DNA of 64,000 nt from an uncultured Clostridia bacterium (lineage in GTDB: Bacteria > Bacillota > Clostridia > TANB77 > CAG-508): NCBI GenBank assembly GCA_944392485.1, contig CALXWO010000001.1:114725-178724 (forward strand), in the 5' to 3' direction. The position numbers and the translations under genes are program-made. This document shows, one piece after another, positions 3,596 through 50,350 of this stretch. Every line of letters begins with the position of its first letter. The stretch's first letter is position 1. The notes under the pieces were generated by a model. That model searched no databases, was not told the origin of the DNA, and saw only the letters and a list, made by a program, of their open reading frames with translations.

Positions 3596-3776
3596 TTAAA
3601 TTGTAATTTGTGTGTGTCTCAAATGGGACGGTTCTTGATGGGTCGTTTCCTCAACGTTGTAGGGGTCGCACTCCTGGGCGACCCGAAAATCGGGTATACG
3701 GGGCGCCGAAGACAGCGCCCCCTACATCAAAAAACCAAATTTCAAAAACAAAATTTATTCATACAAATTACAATTT
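3596..3776. repeat. MITE-like element (same terminal inverted repeats) carrying a GC-rich TGTAGGG...CCCTACA three-hairpin cargo
   Basis: AAATTGTAATTTG...GTTGTAGGGGTCGCACTCCTGGGCGACCCGAAAATCGGGTATACGGGGCGCCGAAGACAGCGCCCCCTACATC...CATACAAATTACAATTTG. Confidence 0.75.
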
Positions 3777-3838
3777 GCCTCTCTCAATAAAATAAGATTA
3801 GTATATATGATTAATACTAATCTTATTTAAATATATTC

Positions 3839-7720: not shown

Positions 7721-9034
7721 TTAACCTTTTTGTAATATTTTGGTAATATTTATCAAACTTCTATCAGCCATTTTTTTATATCTTTCTTGTTTATCTTTTA
7801 TTTTTTCTTCTAACGGTGGTAATATTCCAAAATTAGCATTCATGGGCTGAAACCTATTATTTTGTGTAGATATATATTTTGAAAGAGCACCTATTACAGT
7901 TTCTTCTGGAAACTCTAACAGCTTAACATTGCTAAAAATTTTCGTTGCGTTTATTCCAGCAAATAGTCCTGAAGCAATAGATTCAACATATCCTTCCACA
8001 CCTGTAATTTGTCCTGCAAAAAATATATTAGGTTTATTCTTTAAATTAAATGTGCTATTAAGTAATACTGGTGAATTAATAAAAGTATTTCTATGCATAA
8101 CTCCATACTTAACAAATTCCGCATTTTCAAGACCCGGTATTAAAGAAAACACCCTCTTTTGTTCTCCAAATTTTAAGTTGGTTTGAAATCCTACTAAATT
8201 ATACAAAGTAGCCATTTCGTTATCTTGTCTTAATTGTACAAGTGCATATGGTTTTTTACCTGTTCTAGGGTCAATAAATCCTACTGGTTTTAATGGGCCA
8301 AACCTAATAGTATCTTCTCCTCTTTTTGCCATAATTTCAATTGGCATACACCCTTCAAAAATTTCTCTTTTTTCAAACTCATGAAGAGTTACAACTTCTG
8401 CATTAATTAATTCATTATAGAATTTCTTGTATTCCTCTTCATTAAATGGCAAATTAATATAGCTGTTATCTCCTTCTTTTCCATACCTATCTCCAAAAAA
8501 AGCAATATCCATATTAATGCTATCTTTTTCTACAATTGGTGCTGCTGCATCATAAAAATATAGCTTGTCCTCTCCAGTAAGATTAGATATTTGCCTTTCC
8601 ATTTTCTTCGAAGTCAACGGTCCTGTTGCAATAATTGTAATACACTTATCTTTCTCTAAAGAACTATTAAATTCTTCCCTTATTATCTCAACATTATCTA
8701 ATTTTTCTATTTCCTCTGTTACAAGCTCAGAAAATTTTTCTCTATCAACTGCTAAAGCTTGTCCAGCTGGGATAGCTGCTTTATCTGCGCATTTAATAAG
8801 CAAAGAATCTAGCATTCTTAACTCTTCTTTTAACAAGCCACAAGCATTAGTAATAGCATTAGACTTAAAAGAATTACTACAAACAATCTCTGCCAAATTA
8901 GAATTAGAATGAGCAGGAGAAAACAAACTTGGCTTCATCTCATACAATTTAACTTTAATACCCCTTTTAGCAATTTGATAAGTTGCCTCACAACCTGCAA
9001 GTCCTCCACCAATAACTCTAATATAATTTTCCAT
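7721..9034 (-). CDS. trmFO: methylenetetrahydrofolate--tRNA-(uracil54-C5)-methyltransferase TrmFO (Gid)
   Basis: MENYIRVIGGGLAGCEATYQIAKRG FAD-binding N-terminus and TrmFO body. The annotated ORF extends upstream only by reading through the REP array; AAGGAG RBS before the ATG at 9034. Confidence 0.85.
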   Translation of the reverse strand: MENYIRVIGGGLAGCEATYQIAKRGIKVKLYEMKPSLFSPAHSNSNLAEIVCSNSFKSNAITNACGLLKEELRMLDSLLIKCADKAAIPAGQALAVDREKFSELVTEEIEKLDNVEIIREEFNSSLEKDKCITIIATGPLTSKKMERQISNLTGEDKLYFYDAAAPIVEKDSINMDIAFFGDRYGKEGDNSYINLPFNEEEYKKFYNELINAEVVTLHEFEKREIFEGCMPIEIMAKRGEDTIRFGPLKPVGFIDPRTGKKPYALVQLRQDNEMATLYNLVGFQTNLKFGEQKRVFSLIPGLENAEFVKYGVMHRNTFINSPVLLNSTFNLKNKPNIFFAGQITGVEGYVESIASGLFAGINATKIFSNVKLLEFPEETVIGALSKYISTQNNRFQPMNANFGILPPLEEKIKDKQERYKKMADRSLINITKILQKG

Positions 9035-9052
9035 AACAAACTCCTTTGAAAC

Positions 9053-9300
9053 TTTTTTGCTCGGAGCAATTTTTCCGCAGGATGAGACCTTTTCGCTCGG
9101 AGCGATTTTTCCGCAGAGCAAGACCTTTTCGCTCGGAGCAATTTTTCCGCAGAAAATTTCCTTAATTTATTTTATCATTCAAAGTAAGATATTGCAACGA
9201 GACCTTTTTGCTCGGAGCGATTTTTCCGCGGGGAGACTTTTTCGCTCGGAGCGATTTTTCCGCGTCAAGATTCTTCCCTTAATCTCTTTCCTTATCAAAG
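9053..9300. repeat. REP-like tandem array A (3+2 units of a 33-34-bp hairpin repeat, orientation GCTCGGAGCAATTTTTCCGC)
   Basis: Directly abutting 33-34-bp units with no spacers. Each unit contains a TTGCTCCGAGCAA-type palindrome. Higher-order duplication of [REP units + ttccttaat...tcaaag tail]. Confidence 0.8.
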
Positions 9301-9336
9301 ATTTTAAAATAATCGTTCCTTTTATTAATTGTTTCT

Positions 9337-10104
9337 TTAATCTTCTTGGCATTCTTTTACAGCTTTTGACATTTTTGATTTGCCAATTTTCAAAAATTTT
9401 CTAACATTCGCTTGCTTATACCCTTTATTTAAAATTATTTCTCTACAAAATTCCTTTAACAACTTTTTATCTTCTTTTATTTCACTTATTTTTATATCAT
9501 GCTTTTCCTCAAAAAACTTAATTGCAATTTCCAAATTCTTATTTTCTCTGTCAACATCCATAATTTCAATTTCTACGTTTGATATGTTTAAAAATATATT
9601 TAAATAGTTGCTTTCTGTGCCGAAAATTTTATTTAAAACCACATCATCAACTATACCCTTTTTATTTAAATAATCGTTATAAGTTGAATACTTATAATCT
9701 TTTGGTGCTTTTACCATGTTTGCTTTTACTGGATTCATATGTATGTAGTTTAAGCATCTTAATAAATAGGTTACACTATCTATATACTCACTATTAAATC
9801 TTCCTCTAAAAACATATCCTACTCTTCCTTTTTCTTTATTATAAAACAATGCATATTTCGAATTTATATTTTGCATGAAAGTTGAAAGCTGGGCTACTTT
9901 TTCAGTATAAATTAAAAGATGTGCATGATTATCCATCATACAATATGCCAAGACTAAAATATTATATTTATTTTTGTATTTCTTAATTAAATTAATATAC
10001 TTAATTTTGTAATCATCTCGGTTAAAAATATACTCTTTATTTAAGCCCTGAACCATGACATGGAAAAAGCCTTTGTCATTTAAACCTCTAGGCAAACTAA
10101 TCAA
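9337..10104 (-). CDS. REP-associated tyrosine transposase (RAYT, IS200/IS605 HUH-Y1 superfamily) with a lysine-rich C-terminal extension
   Basis: N-terminal LPRGLNDKGFFHVMVQGLNKEYIF, HUH motif MMDNHAHLLI, Tyr motif YIHMNPVKANMV; flanked on both sides by inverted REP arrays. Confidence 0.7.
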   Translation of the reverse strand: MISLPRGLNDKGFFHVMVQGLNKEYIFNRDDYKIKYINLIKKYKNKYNILVLAYCMMDNHAHLLIYTEKVAQLSTFMQNINSKYALFYNKEKGRVGYVFRGRFNSEYIDSVTYLLRCLNYIHMNPVKANMVKAPKDYKYSTYNDYLNKKGIVDDVVLNKIFGTESNYLNIFLNISNVEIEIMDVDRENKNLEIAIKFFEEKHDIKISEIKEDKKLLKEFCREIILNKGYKQANVRKFLKIGKSKMSKAVKECQED

Positions 10105-10292
10105 TTATTATATCCTCCTTTTATATATTTTTATTTTGGTTTTTGGGAAATTTATTAAAGATATTTTAAGAATTAAATATTTATAATTTTATATTTAAAA
10201 TACTGTTTTTGCAAGATAAACTTTACCTTGTTTTTCAGCAAAATAAGACATTTATTTTAAAAATTTGACTAAAATTTAAATTAAATTTTTGC

Positions 10293-10458
10293 CGCGGAAA
10301 AATTGCTCCGAGCAAAAAAGTCTCCTGCGGAAAAATTGCTCCGAGCAAAAAAGTCTCCTGCGGAGAAATTGCTTCGAGCGAAATGGTCTCCTGCGGAAAA
10401 ATTGCTCCGAGCGAAAAAGTCTCCCCGCGGAAAAATTGCTCCGAGCGAAATGGTCTCA
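10293..10458. repeat. REP-like tandem array B (5 units, orientation GCGGAAAAATTGCTCCGAGC, inverted relative to array A)
   Basis: Same 33-34-bp unit (consensus roughly GCGGAAAAATTGCTCCGAGCRAAAWRGTCTCCT), head-to-tail, ending at the amidase stop. Confidence 0.8.
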
Positions 10459-11203
10459 TTGGTAAAAGTAGTCCATTATTCCTGTGTATATTCCCCATGC
10501 TAGTTTGTTTTGGTATTCGTCTGTTTGCAATAATTGCTCTTCTTCGGGATTTGATAAAAATCCACATTCTATTATTGTTGTTGGTATTTCTACATGGTCT
10601 ATTATATAAATGTTTTCTATGTTTTTTGGTTCTCTTTTGTTTTCTTTTTGCATAGTTTGATTTAAATTTGTTTGTATTACTGTTGCAAGTTTTTTCCCTT
10701 GCTCATTTCCTTTTTTATAAAATGTTTGCCAACCCCAATATTGTTCCTGTGAAATTTTGTTTAGGTGTATTGATACAAATATATCGGCACTAGATTCATT
10801 CCCTATTTTTACTCTGTTATGTATGTCTGATATTTTCTTTTGCTTAATTGTTGTACTGTTTATGTCATATATTGCATTTTCATCAGATCTTGTAAGTATA
10901 ACTGTTGCTCCTGTTTGTTCTAATAAATTTTGAATTTTTGTTGCTATTTTTAAGTTTATTTCTTCTTCTGTTGTTCCCTGCTTGCTTTGTGCTCCTTCAT
11001 CTGGTAAACCATGCCCGTGCATCTATTATTATTGTTTTATTATTTGTTGGTAAAGCTACTGTTTGCATTGAGTCAATTTCTTTTTTGTTTGTATTTTTTA
11101 CATTATAGTTTGTTATTACAAATGTTAATATTAATAACATAATTAACCCAAATACTTTTAATATGTTTTTTCCATTTATAACAACCATAATAAAACACCT
11201 CAT
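10456..11203 (-). CDS. N-acetylmuramoyl-L-alanine amidase (amidase_3, CwlD-like) with a +1 (CGG) site at 11015-11017
   Basis: Signal/TM N-terminus ...KTIIIDA then a frame break. Sense GAT GCA CGG GCA TGG becomes GAT GCA GGG CAT GGT, giving the IIIDAGHGLPDEGA motif; downstream ADIFVSIHLN motif. Confidence 0.75.
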
Positions 11204-13304: not shown

Positions 13305-16300
13305 TTATATGTCTAAAACATATTTTTTAATTAAATATATTCCTATTCCTAAGATTGCAACAACTATAGTTGTAAGTAGTGTATATGCTGTTCCCATGCC
13401 AATACCTGTTTTTAATGATAGAATTACTAGTGCAAAGTCATCATCATCCTCTTGCTCTTTTTCGTAAGGATCTTGTTTGTTATCTGGTGTTGAGTCAATA
13501 TCTTTAGAGTTATGGTCATTATAATCTTCACTTATTTCTGCTATATTTGTTTTTAATCCAAGGTTATCTGGATCATTCTTCCAAGTAAATACTATTTCTA
13601 ATTCTGCACTTTCTCCTGGTTTTAGCAATACTGTTTCTAGTGCCCTTGTTGTTACTTTATCTTCTCCTTCTTTTACCCAACCATATTCTTTATTGTCTTC
13701 TGCTAAAAATTCTAATCCTTCTGGAATATAATCTGTTATTTCTGTTGCATATCCTTCAATTTCGCCTTCGTTTGTTACTCTTATTTTATATACAAACTTA
13801 ACTGTTGTTTTATTTAATTTATTTTTGTCTAATTCTACCTTTGCAACAGGCTCATTTTCTTTGTTGTCTCTTATTCCTGTTGTTTCTGTTTTACCTGTGT
13901 TTGGTTCAAATCCAGTTTCTGTTGTTGTTGTTTTTCCATCTACAGTAACTACTGTTTGAGTTACCCATTTTAAAAGGCTTAAATCGAAATATTTAACATA
14001 TATATATTCTTTATCTTGGTCGTCTTCTCCATCATTCCATTCGTCTGGCACTGAGTCTTCATCGTCATCACTATCTTCTGATATTTGTGCACTATTTACT
14101 ATTATTCTGTCTGATGTATTTGGTTCTGTTACTTTAAATGCAACTTTTACATCTTTATAGTCTGGATTTAATGGGTTTTCTGTACTAATTGGTTTGCTTG
14201 GGTCAAATGGTTTTATTAAATTATCTCTTTCTACTGTTTCTGTTGTTTCACCTGTTTCTTCGTTTGTAATAACTTGTCTATTCTCTTTTGCTTCAGATAA
14301 ATAATCTGTTACAATATCTACTGCTTCTTCTACATTTTCTGTTATATTACCATTTTCATCTAACATTACCCATTCATATTCTTTGTTAATATTATGATTT
14401 GGTAAGAATTCTAATCCTTCTGGTATGTCATCTTTTATTTCTTCTGCATAGCCTTCAACTGTTCCTTCATTATATACTCTAATTGTATAAATTACTACAT
14501 CATTATTTGCAACATATACTGGATCTTTGCTGTGTTCATAAATTATATTGCCTTCTTCTCCCATTGTTGGAACTGGAATTCTTGATGTTACATCTTCTGT
14601 TGTTCCGTTTGTTTCAACACCTGTTATAAATTTACGAAGTGCCAAATCAAAATATTTTAGTATTACTGGTTCATAATCATCATCATCTTCTTGTTGTTTA
14701 TCATATGGATCTTGTTTATTATTTGGTGTAGAATCTCTATCAATTATATCATTTCCATTTTCATCTTTATCTTCAGAAATTTCTGCTATATTTGTTATTG
14801 TATCTTTATATGTATTTTCTGCAACTACTAAACATGATATTTGAACATCTTTATAATATAGTCCTCCATCACCTGTCTCAGCTTTTTGCCAACCTTCTTC
14901 TTCCTCTGTTTTGTTTTTATCAAATGCTTTTATAAGCTTATCATTTAGTTCATTTGTTGTTAATTTAATTTCTCCTGTTACTAACTGAACTTCCTCTAAA
15001 CTTGTTATTCCTGTAAAGTCATCTAGTTCAAAATTTTTTACATCTTCTTCTGTTTTATAGAATCCATTTTCTCCAACTAAATTCATTGTTTGGTCAGCAT
15101 CTAGTTCATTTGATAATTTCCATAGATTATCTACATTAGTATTATAATAATTTATGTAAGCTAAACCTTCTGGAATATAATCTGTTATTTCTGTTGCATA
15201 TCCATCTAAATCGCCTTCATTATATATTCTTAAAGTATATGTAATTATATCTCCTTTTTTAACAGTTAATGGTTCTTTAGAATGTTCATAAGTTGCTGTA
15301 TGTTCTAATTTGCCATCCCTATTAAATGTACCATTTATTAGAGTTTCTGTATTTATTTTTGGAGTTCTATCATCAAATTCTACTTCTTCTCCGTTACGTT
15401 TTATAGATGTAATAAATTTACGAAGTGCTAAATCAAATGTTTTACTTGTGTTAGTTATATCATATTTATCTATTTCTGTTGTATATCCTTCAACTGGATC
15501 TTCTGTTATTGTATAAACATATTCTCTTCCAGTTTCATCATATTTTTCTAAATTATCAAATGTATATTCCCAATTATCATTTGCACTAATTGTTTTACTA
15601 TCTATTTCTTCTCCATCTCTAAATAAATGTATTGTTATTGTTTCTGGTCTTGTTCCATAAATATTATCGTAATCCACCCATGTTTTTGTTCCACTAATAC
15701 TTGTTATTGTTTCGTACCTATTTATTATGTTATAACCATCAATTTCTGTTTCGTATCCTTCTACTGGTACTTCTTGTATTTCGTAGACATATTCTTTTCC
15801 ATTTTCATCATATTTTTCTAAGTTATCAAATGTATATTCCCAATTATCATCTGCTGTTATTGTTTTTCTTTCTATTTCATTTCTATTTCTTAATAATATT
15901 ATTGTAATACTTTCTGGTCTTGTATTATCTGCATTGTTGTAATCTACCCATGTTTTTGTTCCGCTAATACTTATTGGTGGTTCTTTTTCTACAGTAATTT
16001 CATCTTCTGAATAAATTTTTTCTTTTTCTATTTCAACTACAGGTTGAGTTATATTACCAGCAGTTAAAAATGTTGCTGTATTATTATAGTATTCTGAAGA
16101 CATTTTTAAAGTAACACTTGACATATCATATTGATTGTTTTCATCTATTTCTAATAAAGTTGAACCTTTTTCAAATGCTTTATAAAATCTAATATAATAA
16201 TTCATACCTTTAATTAGTTTATTGTCTTTTACTTCTGTTCCATCTTCTTTAACAAACTTATATACAGTATGCCTTTGATTTTCTGCTATTTCAAAAAAGG

Positions 16301-17354
16301 CTGTAATTTCTTTTCCAGTTGCATCATATAATTTTATATCAGATGCATCTATTGTTTTTCTTTCTGAAGCTATTCCTTCTATTTTTACAGGACCTATTTC
16401 ATAATAATTATATAATCCCATATTATCATTGCTTGTAATTTTTAAGCTATTTGTTTTATCAAATTTATTTGTTTCTATAATATTTAAACTTCCTGTTTCG
16501 CTATCTATTTTATATTTATTAGAATTTTCAATTGCACCTTTTATAAAATATTGATAAATTTTATTTAAATTTTCTTCTCTTTCACCTATATCGTTTGAAT
16601 CATTAATTTTTAAAAATTGTGTAGGATACATTGTTTCTTGTGATACAGTAGGAACTATTTTTGCTTTTTGCTCGTCATAGTTTGAAAAGTACCAAATTGC
16701 AAGTTGTTGTAGTACTTCTATATCATCATCTGTTATAGCATCTTGCTCTTCTTTTACAATTCCTACTTTGTCTAGCAACTCATTTTTATATTCGCTTGCA
16801 TCATATACAATTTGTCCTTCTAAATTTGTTATATCTTTAGGTAAATATGATTCATCTAAAACCCATAAAATGGCATTGTATATATTTACTGTTCCTTTAA
16901 CTGTTTCTCCATTAATTTCTACTTCAATATTTTCTTCTCTATCAAAATTAATGTTTGCACCATTTTCTCCAGTTTTATATTCGTTCATTGCATTTATTAT
17001 GTTTATTCTGTCTGTATTTGAATGCATTTCTCCAAGTTCTGTGTATTCTACAGGATCTATTGATATATCTTCTCCATGTGCTCCAAATCCTATTCCACCT
17101 CTTAGACAGTAGAGAGCTTTTGTATATGCTAATTCTTCTGAAATTTTATCATCATTATCAAATATTTTTACAACTGTATAATATAAGCTGTCGCCTCCAT
17201 TATACTTGTATGTACTTGATGTGAATGGTCTTTCTGTTTGAGCTCCTAAACTTCTTGTTATATCTGCTGCATATACATTTCCGAAAATTAATCCAGATAT
17301 AATTAAAATTAATAATGCAATTAGTAAAATTCTAATCTTTTTCATATTTACCAT
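13305..17354 (-). CDS. large cell-surface adhesin/pilin-like protein with tandem CnaB-type and DUF11-like (isopeptide-forming) domains and a C-terminal hydrophobic anchor
   Basis: Signal peptide; two near-identical CnaB repeats (SISGTKTWVDY..TRPE.I.I.L.R...I...TI.A.DNWEYTFDNLEKYDE.G.EYVY.I.E.PVEGY.TEID.Y). Repeated FDLALRKFIT / FDLSLLKWVT DUF11-like modules separated by D/E-rich linkers. C-terminal TM (no clear LPXTG). Confidence 0.7.
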   Translation of the reverse strand: MVNMKKIRILLIALLILIISGLIFGNVYAADITRSLGAQTERPFTSSTYKYNGGDSLYYTVVKIFDNDDKISEELAYTKALYCLRGGIGFGAHGEDISIDPVEYTELGEMHSNTDRINIINAMNEYKTGENGANINFDREENIEVEINGETVKGTVNIYNAILWVLDESYLPKDITNLEGQIVYDASEYKNELLDKVGIVKEEQDAITDDDIEVLQQLAIWYFSNYDEQKAKIVPTVSQETMYPTQFLKINDSNDIGEREENLNKIYQYFIKGAIENSNKYKIDSETGSLNIIETNKFDKTNSLKITSNDNMGLYNYYEIGPVKIEGIASERKTIDASDIKLYDATGKEITAFFEIAENQRHTVYKFVKEDGTEVKDNKLIKGMNYYIRFYKAFEKGSTLLEIDENNQYDMSSVTLKMSSEYYNNTATFLTAGNITQPVVEIEKEKIYSEDEITVEKEPPISISGTKTWVDYNNADNTRPESITIILLRNRNEIERKTITADDNWEYTFDNLEKYDENGKEYVYEIQEVPVEGYETEIDGYNIINRYETITSISGTKTWVDYDNIYGTRPETITIHLFRDGEEIDSKTISANDNWEYTFDNLEKYDETGREYVYTITEDPVEGYTTEIDKYDITNTSKTFDLALRKFITSIKRNGEEVEFDDRTPKINTETLINGTFNRDGKLEHTATYEHSKEPLTVKKGDIITYTLRIYNEGDLDGYATEITDYIPEGLAYINYYNTNVDNLWKLSNELDADQTMNLVGENGFYKTEEDVKNFELDDFTGITSLEEVQLVTGEIKLTTNELNDKLIKAFDKNKTEEEEGWQKAETGDGGLYYKDVQISCLVVAENTYKDTITNIAEISEDKDENGNDIIDRDSTPNNKQDPYDKQQEDDDDYEPVILKYFDLALRKFITGVETNGTTEDVTSRIPVPTMGEEGNIIYEHSKDPVYVANNDVVIYTIRVYNEGTVEGYAEEIKDDIPEGLEFLPNHNINKEYEWVMLDENGNITENVEEAVDIVTDYLSEAKENRQVITNEETGETTETVERDNLIKPFDPSKPISTENPLNPDYKDVKVAFKVTEPNTSDRIIVNSAQISEDSDDDEDSVPDEWNDGEDDQDKEYIYVKYFDLSLLKWVTQTVVTVDGKTTTTETGFEPNTGKTETTGIRDNKENEPVAKVELDKNKLNKTTVKFVYKIRVTNEGEIEGYATEITDYIPEGLEFLAEDNKEYGWVKEGEDKVTTRALETVLLKPGESAELEIVFTWKNDPDNLGLKTNIAEISEDYNDHNSKDIDSTPDNKQDPYEKEQEDDDDFALVILSLKTGIGMGTAYTLLTTIVVAILGIGIYLIKKYVLDI

Positions 17355-41842: not shown

Positions 41843-41895
41843 ATTGAATTTTGTTTTGTGATGTGTGAGGTGCAAAGTGTGAGGTTTGCTTTTTA
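41843..41895. repeat. degenerate half-copy of the MITE-like GT-rich module abutting REP array C
   Basis: AAATTGAATTTTG TTTTGTGATGTGTGAGGTGCAAAGTGTGAGGTTTGCTTTTTA versus the 38001 copy. Confidence 0.6.
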
Positions 41896-41898
41896 AAT

Positions 41899-42066
41899 GG
41901 AAAATTTGCTCCGAGCAAAAAAGTCTCTTCGCGGAAAAATTGCTCCGAGCAAAAAAGTCTTCTTGCGGAAAATTTGCTCCGAGCAAAATGGTCTTCTCGC
42001 GGAAAATTTGCTCCGAGCGAAAAAGTCTCCTCGCGGAAAATTTGCTCCGAGCAAAATGGTCTCCGG
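41899..42066. repeat. REP-like tandem array C (5 units)
   Basis: Same 33-34-bp unit, direct orientation; downstream of the rpoC stop. Confidence 0.8.
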
Positions 42067-49672: not shown

Positions 49673-50350
49673 AATAAATCAACTCCCCCTAATTTTAATG
49701 AAAAGTTAAGAGTGAAGAGTTAAAAGTTTTGGAATTTTTCGACATTTAGCCGAAAAATAACATTTACTATTCATTCTTCCTTTCTAACTATTCATTTTCT
49801 TTTTTGTTTGAGCAGATATATTTATTTAGAAATTCTAAGTTATAAGTTTCTAACTCGTAATTCCTAACCAAATCAAACAAGGTCCCTCTTAAATATTAAT
49901 GTATTATAATCGCCAAAACCGTACTGCCCTAAATGAGTTTTGATTATTATAACCTAAATTAATATTTAATTCCTCCTTACTTGATTATTTTAAACAACAC
50001 AAAAAAGTGTAGGAGATTTGTTTTTTATTTTACTCAACGGACGTATGTAATGCTTACGTCCCTACACTTTTTTTAATTTTATCTATTTAATAACAATTAT
50101 ATTTTTTATCTTAACCACCCTTATTATATAAGAGCTACATATTCTATGACAAAATATGTGCTGTATAATAATATCATATAAAAATGTGGCTTGTCAACAT
50201 TTTGTAATATTTTTTTAACATTTGTGTTGTGAGAAGTGGGATGTGGGAAGTGTGAAATTAGAGTAAACCTAACAATACCTAGCCCTAAAAAGCATACCTC
50301 ACACCTCACACTTCGCATATCACATATCACAAAAACAAATTACAATTTGT

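Follow-up and report, generated by a model that had tools for sequence, protein, structure and literature searches.

TIRYT genes encode Y1 nucleases and are surrounded by terminal inverted repeats (TIRs), for which a GGGGWSAS motif has been described (Di Nocera et al. 2013, PMC3733652). They correspond to subclass 2.1 of the TnpA_Y1 proteins, which is defined by a C-terminal extension of the helix-turn-helix (HTH) type (Quentin et al. 2018, PMC6006769); the extension is of the Bac_DnaA_C, HTH_23 or HTH_28 type. When sequenced strains were surveyed, subclass 2.1 nucleases turned up in about 15% of them, and Quentin et al. found no sequences resembling repetitive extragenic palindromes (REPs) near their genes (PMC6006769). 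The TIRs form moderately abundant families in some genomes, where they are present as dimers or clusters (PMC3733652). Although widespread, TIRYTs have barely been studied, and no member has been biochemically characterised in the literature that we searched. Here, we describe a Y1 nuclease gene that lies between mutually inverted repeat arrays in the DNA of an uncultured Clostridia bacterium (GCA_944392485.1, contig CALXWO010000001.1, positions 114,725–178,724 of the forward strand); this stretch of 64,000 nt, with a G+C content of 28.8%, is called the window in the following. The source belongs to the GTDB lineage Bacteria; Bacillota; Clostridia; TANB77; CAG-508. We conclude that the locus is probably of the TIRtron type, that is, a chromosomally fixed, single-copy gene of a TIRYT-type nuclease between inverted cognate elements of about 30 nt, which have been amplified and seeded elsewhere.

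The locus can also be compared to the systems of REP-associated tyrosine transposases (RAYTs). It resembles the REPtron of Escherichia coli (Ton-Hoang et al. 2012, PMC3333891) in having an apparently single-copy, vertically kept gene that is bordered by its own repeats, whose copy number varies among strains. The repeats themselves differ: in E. coli, the REPs carry a GTAG tag and form stable, imperfect palindromes in inverted pairs (bacterial interspersed mosaic elements, BIMEs), whereas the window units are untagged, have no stable stem and stand in direct tandem. The sole RAYT group reported from Clostridia is Group 1 (Bertels, Gallie & Rainey 2017, PMC5581495), so that relatives of this kind had already been noted there when an earlier note on this DNA pointed to a REP/RAYT system in a Firmicute and remarked that such systems are best characterised in Proteobacteria. 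By their description, Group 1 RAYTs are similar to our locus in that the flanking 16-mers are of modest abundance (about 12 occurrences), instead of hundreds of REP doublets forming hairpins (REPINs). However, some of them are duplicated or carried on plasmids, whereas strict synteny was observed throughout our sample of the window clade. Systems of this kind are already known (PMC3733652, PMC6006769, PMC5581495), and the window locus is a further example of it with unusually informative natural variation.

The open reading frame (ORF) 9337–10104, in which the earlier note had recognised the hallmark motifs of RAYT and IS200 transposases, is present as described. It encodes 255 aa with the motifs PRG..FHVMVQGLNKEYIF, NHAHLL and YIHMNPVKANMV, matches Pfam Y1_Tnp with 42 bits and occurs once in the window according to tblastn; its start codon is a TTG at 10104 with AGGAGG upstream, and its stop codon lies at 9337–9339. 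By far the best-scoring model is NCBIfam NF047646 (REP_Tyr_transpos, REP-associated tyrosine transposase), with 72.3 bits over residues 10–140 at a curated cut-off of 80, compared to 15.7 bits at a cut-off of 55 for the NCBIfam IS200 model. The tyrosine signature is Y120-I-H-M-N124, and such a Y-x3-N is typical of TnpAREP, in contrast to Y-x3-Q in IS200/IS605 (PMC3333891). A homologue search of the database resulted in 410 matches, nearly all of 240–270 aa, of which 62 were taken into an alignment. Residues H60, H62, Y120, N124 and S140 are invariant in this alignment, where identity goes down to 41%. The conservation of the HUH motif, the tyrosine and the asparagine over such distances argues for selection on catalysis, and because the active site is invariant, catalysis by the window nuclease is probably conserved. 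When compared to the PDB, the profile of the 62 homologues matches TnpAREP (4er8, E = 2e-4). The structure predicted with AlphaFold2 (AF2; pLDDT 91.5) has the same top match in Foldseek (4er8_A of E. coli; E = 1.6e-6, target-normalised TM score of 0.72 over 155 aligned columns), followed by the TnpA proteins of IS608 and ISDra2. TnpAREP is thus the best match of both profile and fold and shares the HUH motif and the Y-x3-N. These comparisons support a placement of the nuclease on the RAYT side of the Y1 family and not among the ordinary IS200/IS605 transposases. The RAYT identity proposed in the earlier note stands to this extent, but the score remains below the cut-off and the locus has features of TIRYTs and TIRtrons.

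One such feature is the C-terminal extension of about 100 aa (approximately residues 150–255), which had been noticed before. It is not a low-complexity tail but a helical, HTH-looking domain that is kept in 62/62 aligned homologues. Their C-termini match Pfam HTH_3 in 18 of 62 cases and HTH_23 in 6, and others match HTH_7 or HTH_37. For the window protein, the AF2 model has a pLDDT of about 90 over the C-terminal helical domain, and the assignment of this domain to the HTH type is weak. TnpAREP, with 165 aa and an identity of about 21% to the window nuclease, does not have this domain. Conversely, our locus and TIRYTs have in common a RAYT-like Y1 core with a C-terminal extension, which in our locus may be of the HTH type. 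By this architecture and by the TIR motif described below, and not by a tree with published members, the nuclease would be assigned to the TIRYT/TIRtron class, subclass 2.1.

Several observations concern the edges of the nuclease gene. The promoter-like site upstream of it (Table 1) is followed by a AATAAATATTTAATTCT stretch in six lineages, and this stretch possibly acts as an operator or leader. The start codons are weak: TTG is used in the window and apparently ATT in L007 (about 2950–2965) and L015 (about 9950–9965), where the gene callers chose an internal Met as the start. At the 3' end of the gene, the nuclease frame of several homologues (P0013, P0041, P0045 and others) continues into the first downstream repeat, resulting in C-terminal tails such as ..GEIAPSEKF.. 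or ..SPSEKRK.., and in L008 the stop codon lies within the repeat (3775–3790, AGTCCGTCCTAA). Thus, the end of the nuclease gene overlaps the inner repeat.

The repeats were detected with Tandem Repeats Finder, which reports arrays of period 33–36 at the positions listed in Table 1 (for array D, 57752–57871), and counted with an nhmmer profile built from the units. We observed exactly 19 units in the window, all of them in four intergenic arrays and none as a solo copy. The core pattern TYGCTC-C-GAGCRA, searched with at most 2 mismatches, gave 37 strand-matches that correspond to 19 sites, whereas dinucleotide shuffles averaged 0.55 and never exceeded 3. On the plus strand the unit of arrays B, C and D is GCGGAAAAATTGCTCCGAGCRAAAAGTCTCC, and array A reads likewise on the minus strand. 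As array A is opposite in orientation to array B, the nuclease gene is bracketed by mutually inverted arrays. This bracket had been described in the earlier note, with array B at nearly the same position; array A, however, does not extend over 9053–9300 but over 9047–9264, and 44 bp without repeats (9155–9198) separate its first 3 units from the other 2. Arrays C and D, at distances of 32 and 48 kb from the nuclease locus, have the orientation of B, opposite to A. Thus, the repeat is indeed found at unlinked intergenic sites, although there are two further arrays and not three.

The size of 33–34 bp and the short palindrome give the units a superficial similarity to CRISPR repeats. A CRISPR-like or other RNA-encoding array that is unrelated to the ORF is nevertheless hardly conceivable: the units abut without spacers, as had been noticed before, and thus do not form a CRISPR; an Rfam search of the arrays gave no match, no cas-like ORFs are present near the locus, and the repeat co-varies with the adjacent nuclease (see below). 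More serious is the possibility of a canonical REP/RAYT system, in which a standard RAYT mobilises stable, GTAG-tagged palindromes as inverted doublets. REPs are imperfect palindromes of 20–40 nt with GTAG or CGTC at their foot, and a genome usually contains tens to hundreds of them outside its genes; the 64 kb of the window contain 19 units. The signatures of the protein are those of the RAYT side, and the bracket and the dispersed copies are REPtron-like. Nonetheless, we regard such a system as quite unlikely. The palindrome TTGCTC-C-GAGCAA spans 13 bp with one central base, and the CGA loop of a TTGCTC-CGA-GAGCAA hairpin, as it had been read previously, does not exist. Folded as single-stranded DNA (ssDNA), a single unit yields at best a stem of 5 bp around a loop of 3 nt (−2.2 to −3.3 kcal/mol; z between 0 and −1.4 compared to shuffles), and a stretch of four units reaches z = −1.4 to −1.8; with both no better than shuffles, the idea of a REP hairpin was dropped. 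GTAG, CTAC and CGTC are absent from the 19 aligned units. Inverted doublets do not occur within the arrays, where all units are strictly head-to-tail, and only A and B face each other in inverted orientation, from either side of the gene and at a distance of about 1 kb. Without a tag, with a shuffle-like fold and never in inverted pairs, the units are not REPINs, unlike what the earlier note had suggested. The score below the NF047646 cut-off and the putative C-terminal HTH-type domain argue in the same direction. For annotation, this is a warning that such 33–34-bp arrays are neither CRISPR arrays nor REPINs.

To compare the locus among relatives, we used a syntenic set of six lineages comprising the window plus L007, L008–L010, L011–L014, L015, L016 and L017. 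The gene order GGDEF – Amidase_3 – nuclease – trmFO is found on the contigs of all six, with nuclease homologues of 52–67% identity and flanking genes that are 72–92% identical. In the window and all five other lineages the nuclease lies between inverted repeats (Table 1). Proteins with a GCTCGGAGC core in their repeats (window, L007 and L015) have a mutual identity of 65–84%, and those with a GGACGGAC core (L008 and L017) of 67%, whereas the identity between the two sets is 52–58%. When comparing the window to L017, TrmFO is 92%, the amidase 86% and GGDEF 89% identical, but the nuclease only 53%. The identity of the nuclease thus tracks the repeat core and not the host: the repeat co-varies with the protein. 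At the nucleotide level, the window and L017 are 80–93% identical in the flanks and 52–75% in the gene, with still lower values in the repeat-bearing intergenic parts. This drop (window 9040–10460) is bounded exactly by the amidase stop and the trmFO start, and the tree of the nuclease does not agree with its neighbours. Within a conserved frame, the cassette thus forms a divergence island, which can result from either fast co-evolution or replacement. In this respect, and in belonging to a low-GC gut Clostridia clade with a syntenic locus, it differs from the described TIRYTs and TIRtrons.

The conserved position also bears on an ordinary, autonomous IS200/IS605 insertion sequence (IS). Such an element would account for the Pfam Y1_Tnp match and for the structural similarity to the TnpA of IS608 and ISDra2. 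However, it is very improbable, as the chromosomal position is fixed in six lineages with conserved flanking genes, the flanking repeats are inverted and do not form asymmetric left and right IS ends, and the gene, single copy in the window, has the amidase gene and trmFO as neighbours and no tnpB. Furthermore, the signature is Y-x3-N and the IS200 score is far below its cut-off. A grouping with IS200/IS605, an adjacent tnpB or a repeat confined to the locus had been named in the earlier note as grounds to give up its proposal; none of these was found.

The link to TIRtrons comes from more distant homologues. A metagenome scan detected 80 loci with 35–54% identity in other genomic contexts, 34 of them with usable flanks. 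At 25/34 loci the gene is bracketed by inverted repeats of 10–43 nt that carry GGGGACGG, GGGACGTT, GGGGACAC or GGGGTCGGAGAC, and these motifs frequently occupy the loop above a stem of 8–9 bp; matches in the same orientation, which served as a control, were mostly ≤11 nt long. The motifs GGGGACGG and GGGGACAC are similar to GGGGWSAS. Our locus also shares with TIRtrons that terminal inverted repeats bracket the gene at a distance of about 100–280 bp. TIRs of the GGGGACGG type are typical of TIRYTs (PMC3733652, PMC6006769), which is a further point against a canonical REP/RAYT system. At the position where GGGGWSAS stands in TIRtrons, the window unit carries GCTCGGAG and the sister lineages carry GGACGGAC. 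The fit to the motif thus reads as a graded series, and would hold at the level of the family and not for the window locus: the series GGGGACGGAG -> GGGGTCGGAGAC -> GGACGGAC -> GCTCGGAGC appears to tie the window unit to GGGGWSAS. The best explanation of these sequences is that an ancestral GGGGACGGAG-type motif drifted to TYGCTCGGAGCRA in the window lineage. Further differences to TIRtrons are that the motif of the window lineage is now palindromic (TYGCTCGGAGCRA) and that the TIRs have been amplified to regular head-to-tail arrays of 4–6 units, which vary among strains.

This variation is directly visible among close relatives. Array B has 5 units in the window, 3 in L011 and 6 in L012–L014, and the nuclease is 100% identical in all of these. 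Array A has 5 units in the window and 4 in L012, where the distal part consists of 1 unit, and array C has 5 units in the window and 4 in L024. Array D contains 4 units in the window, 5 in L110 and 4 diverged ones in L111–L113. The ends of the arrays are constant, whereas the inner units turn over between strains. Arrays B and C have the order of unit variants in common (AA, AA, TG, AA, TG). The identity between units is 0.87 within arrays compared to 0.84 between arrays, and as the former is barely higher, both purely local growth and exchange between arrays are compatible with the data.

Beyond the window, related units were found between the genes of three other Clostridia metagenome-assembled genomes (MAGs), where they stand alone, in pairs or in short arrays and a nuclease gene is absent from the 8 kb around them. 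A scan of genome contigs with GGAAAANTYGCTCCGAGCRAAA resulted in 6 loci, none from the source genome; 4/6 are in related Clostridia MAGs and two are probably due to chance, as about one is expected. At array C, we compared three loci with prs homologues and found one unit fewer in L024 and rearrangements in L025 and L026, but no clean empty site or target duplication. At array D, located via the neighbouring 137-aa gene, the array is present with 4–5 units in all strains. Since no empty site was found at these loci, transposition is suggested by the dispersal and was not observed as such. In L026, a related Clostridia species with a prs that is 89% identical, there is no array of the window unit between rpoC and prs. 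L026 instead has GC-rich, GTAG-tagged hairpins as inverted pairs (1019–1342 and 2210–2500; GTAGGGGTCGCACTCCTGGGCGACCC ... GGGGCGCCGAAGGCGGCGCCCCCTAC), so that this AT-rich Firmicute contains REPIN-like elements of the classical kind.

From these patterns we infer which sequence is bound, where and on which strand it is cut, and that the nuclease, rather than slippage, is the driver. The nuclease would recognise the conserved T-tract and CGGAG on ssDNA, most plausibly on the lagging-strand template; the T-tract and CGGAG are probably what is recognised because they are constant across lineages. It would nick beside this motif via Y120, with a metal held by H60/H62/N124, and the strands would be rejoined. 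Since the units of an array repeat one site in the same direction, a cut at two of them could either excise those in between, in the form of a single-stranded circle, or take up such a circle, by which the copy number would be altered and a new locus occasionally seeded. Ordinary slippage and unequal recombination may also contribute to the copy-number change, and the nuclease gene itself would no longer be mobile. IS200/IS605 TnpA (IS608, ISDra2) has the Y1 HUH fold in common with the window nuclease, and likely the single-strand 'peel and paste' chemistry as well; the ends of these elements are sites that face the same way on a single strand and are not inverted, in line with the head-to-tail arrays. 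Concerning the strand, the GC skew of the plus strand is −0.2 throughout the window, so that the minus strand would be the leading strand and the motif strand (CGGAG) of arrays B, C and D would have the sequence of the lagging-strand template. This sense of the motif strand is suggestive only.

Several points weigh against a TIRtron-type locus that works in this way. The unit has no stable hairpin, in contrast to the substrates of TnpAREP and IS608 TnpA. The nuclease stays below the curated NF047646 cut-off. Among the Pfam HTH families, none is matched significantly by the window protein itself, and a Foldseek search with its C-terminal domain gave weak matches only, to the DNA-binding domains of DeoR and LsrR (E > 3). 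The strand argument is based on two independent arrays. Empty-site or presence/absence polymorphism was not detected among the fetched relatives, which are identical at the junctions or rearranged. A change in unit number with constant end units is the outcome expected of slippage alone, which would suffice to explain the copy-number changes taken by themselves. Because only 64 kb of the genome were seen, the 'single copy' of the gene and the 'dispersed family' of the repeat are extrapolations from the window. Lastly, our literature searches yielded no biochemical or transposition evidence for the window nuclease or for any TIRYT.

Some of these points would also fit a nuclease that has been domesticated as a DNA-binding regulator or nucleoid protein. 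The arrays would then be clusters of binding sites that change by slippage or unequal recombination, with no transposition today. The 13-bp perfect palindrome resembles an operator for a dimeric HTH protein, and units are found in promoter and 5' untranslated regions (5' UTRs), that is, in the trmFO leader and the divergent region of purF and purN; the fixed end units with inner turnover and the weak hairpin are likewise in line with this idea. We consider it unlikely, however, since the HUH, Tyr and Asn that are invariant across the 62 homologues argue for selected catalysis, and since some mechanism of transfer is required to bring the unit to unlinked loci and, in several species, to sites distant from the gene. 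A dimeric HTH operator was also rejected as the explanation of the palindrome, as it does not generalise to the sister lineages, whose core GGACGGAC is non-palindromic.

A different and rather doubtful possibility is that the cassette is a fast-evolving, locus-fixed 'specificity module', in which nuclease and element switch together, the enzyme builds and remodels the arrays via multi-unit single-stranded circles and the arrays serve the host. A joint switch at one site is suggested by the two species in which the flanking genes are 86–92% but the nucleases only 53% identical, and multi-unit circles fit the order of variants that arrays B and C have in common. If this were true, the arrays may, for example, tune the expression of trmFO, purF/purN or prs, as they are located in the leaders and promoter regions of these genes, and would not be merely selfish.

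Under the preferred interpretation as a TIRtron-type locus, the clade is a natural experiment, with at least three protein/repeat pairs (GCTCGGAGC, GGACGGAC and the more distant GGGGACGG) around one fixed locus and with arrays that vary among strains carrying an identical enzyme. This opens to test how TIRYTs recognise their targets, whether the enzymes move their own repeats and which role the HTH domain has. It furthermore extends REPtron-like biology into low-GC gut Clostridia.

Table 1. Positions of the nuclease gene, the arrays and the promoter-like sites in the window, and repeats flanking the nuclease gene in the syntenic lineages.
Feature	Position	Strand	Description
Array A, proximal part	9047–9154	−	3 units, period 36, between the promoter-like site at 9169–9197 and the trmFO ribosome binding site
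trmFO promoter-like site	9169–9197	−	TTGCAA-17-TAAAAT, TG upstream; within the 44-bp gap of array A
Array A, distal part	9199–9264	−	2 units, inverted relative to array B
Nuclease gene	9337–10104	−	255-aa Y1 HUH nuclease, RAYT/TIRYT-like, single copy in the window
C-terminal helical domain	9340–9552	−	about residues 185–255, ends in a possible helix-turn-helix-like motif ..KGYKQANVRKFLKIGKSKMSKAV..
Y1 catalytic core	9667–10077	−	residues 10–146; HUH = H60-A-H62, Y120, N124, S140
Nuclease promoter-like site	10186–10214	−	TTGCAA-17-TAAAAT, then conserved AATAAATATTTAATTCT stretch; kept in 6 lineages (alignment)
Array B	10294–10457	+	5 head-to-tail units GCGGAAAAATTGCTCCGAGCRAAAAGTCTCCT, period 33–34, upstream of the nuclease gene
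Array C	41899–42064	+	5 units, flanked by the terminator hairpin of rpoC and the promoter region of prs
Array D	57752–57873	+	4 units, both end units partial; between divergent purF and purN
Flanking repeat, window			GAGACyTTTTCGCTCGGAGCAATTTTTCCGC
Flanking repeat, L007 and L015			TCAAyTTTTTGCTCGGAGCGATTTCTTGA
Flanking repeat, L008			CTTTTTAGGACGGACTTGATTTAGTCC
Flanking repeat, L016			GGAAATTTTTCGGACGGACTTTTTTCTTTCC
Flanking repeat, L017			TTTTTGGACGGACTAAATTTGGC

The arrays also border on features of the neighbouring genes. A TTATTTTATCA motif is found at the position matching the trmFO promoter-like site in L007, L015 and L016. As this site lies in the gap of array A, the three proximal units are in the likely 5' UTR of trmFO. 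In all six lineages a repeat is located directly at the ribosome binding site of trmFO; in the window it is the innermost unit of array A that adjoins this site (9032–9050). On the other side, array B extends into the amidase gene, whose stop codon (10456–10458) is part of the last unit. In the window, array B stands in place of the terminator hairpin AAAGGAGCAAATCCTTT of the relatives L007, L008 and L016.

A second, unrelated repeat family of about 130 bp is present in the window at 38005–38135, 50215–50350 and 63640–63765, with partial copies at 41855–41897 and 60781–60805. It has terminal inverted repeats AAATTGTAATTTG...CAAATTACAATTT, and a GT-rich arm of 7-mers (GTGTGAGG, GTGGGAA) stands opposite a CA-rich arm (CCTCACAC, TTCCCAC), which results in a long imperfect hairpin similar to miniature inverted-repeat transposable elements. 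The half-copy at 41855–41897 directly adjoins array C.

Next to array D, purN apparently needs a +1 frameshift (57934–57990): an ATG with a good ribosome binding site leads to MYNLVLFAS and then to ..RKWNNFAGCNR*, and the remainder of PurN (GNGTTLQAVIDS...) is in the next frame. As this sequence is identical in five other assemblies (L109–L113), it is not a one-off sequencing error; possible explanations are a pseudogene, a programmed frameshift or a short protein that starts with TTG. Finally, a 270-bp tandem duplication (15468–15972; 1.9 copies, 81% match) lies inside the 1349-aa ORF 13305–17354. Because homologues of this ORF carry CLIPPER/Ig-like repeats, the ORF probably encodes a surface protein, one domain of which is repeated here.

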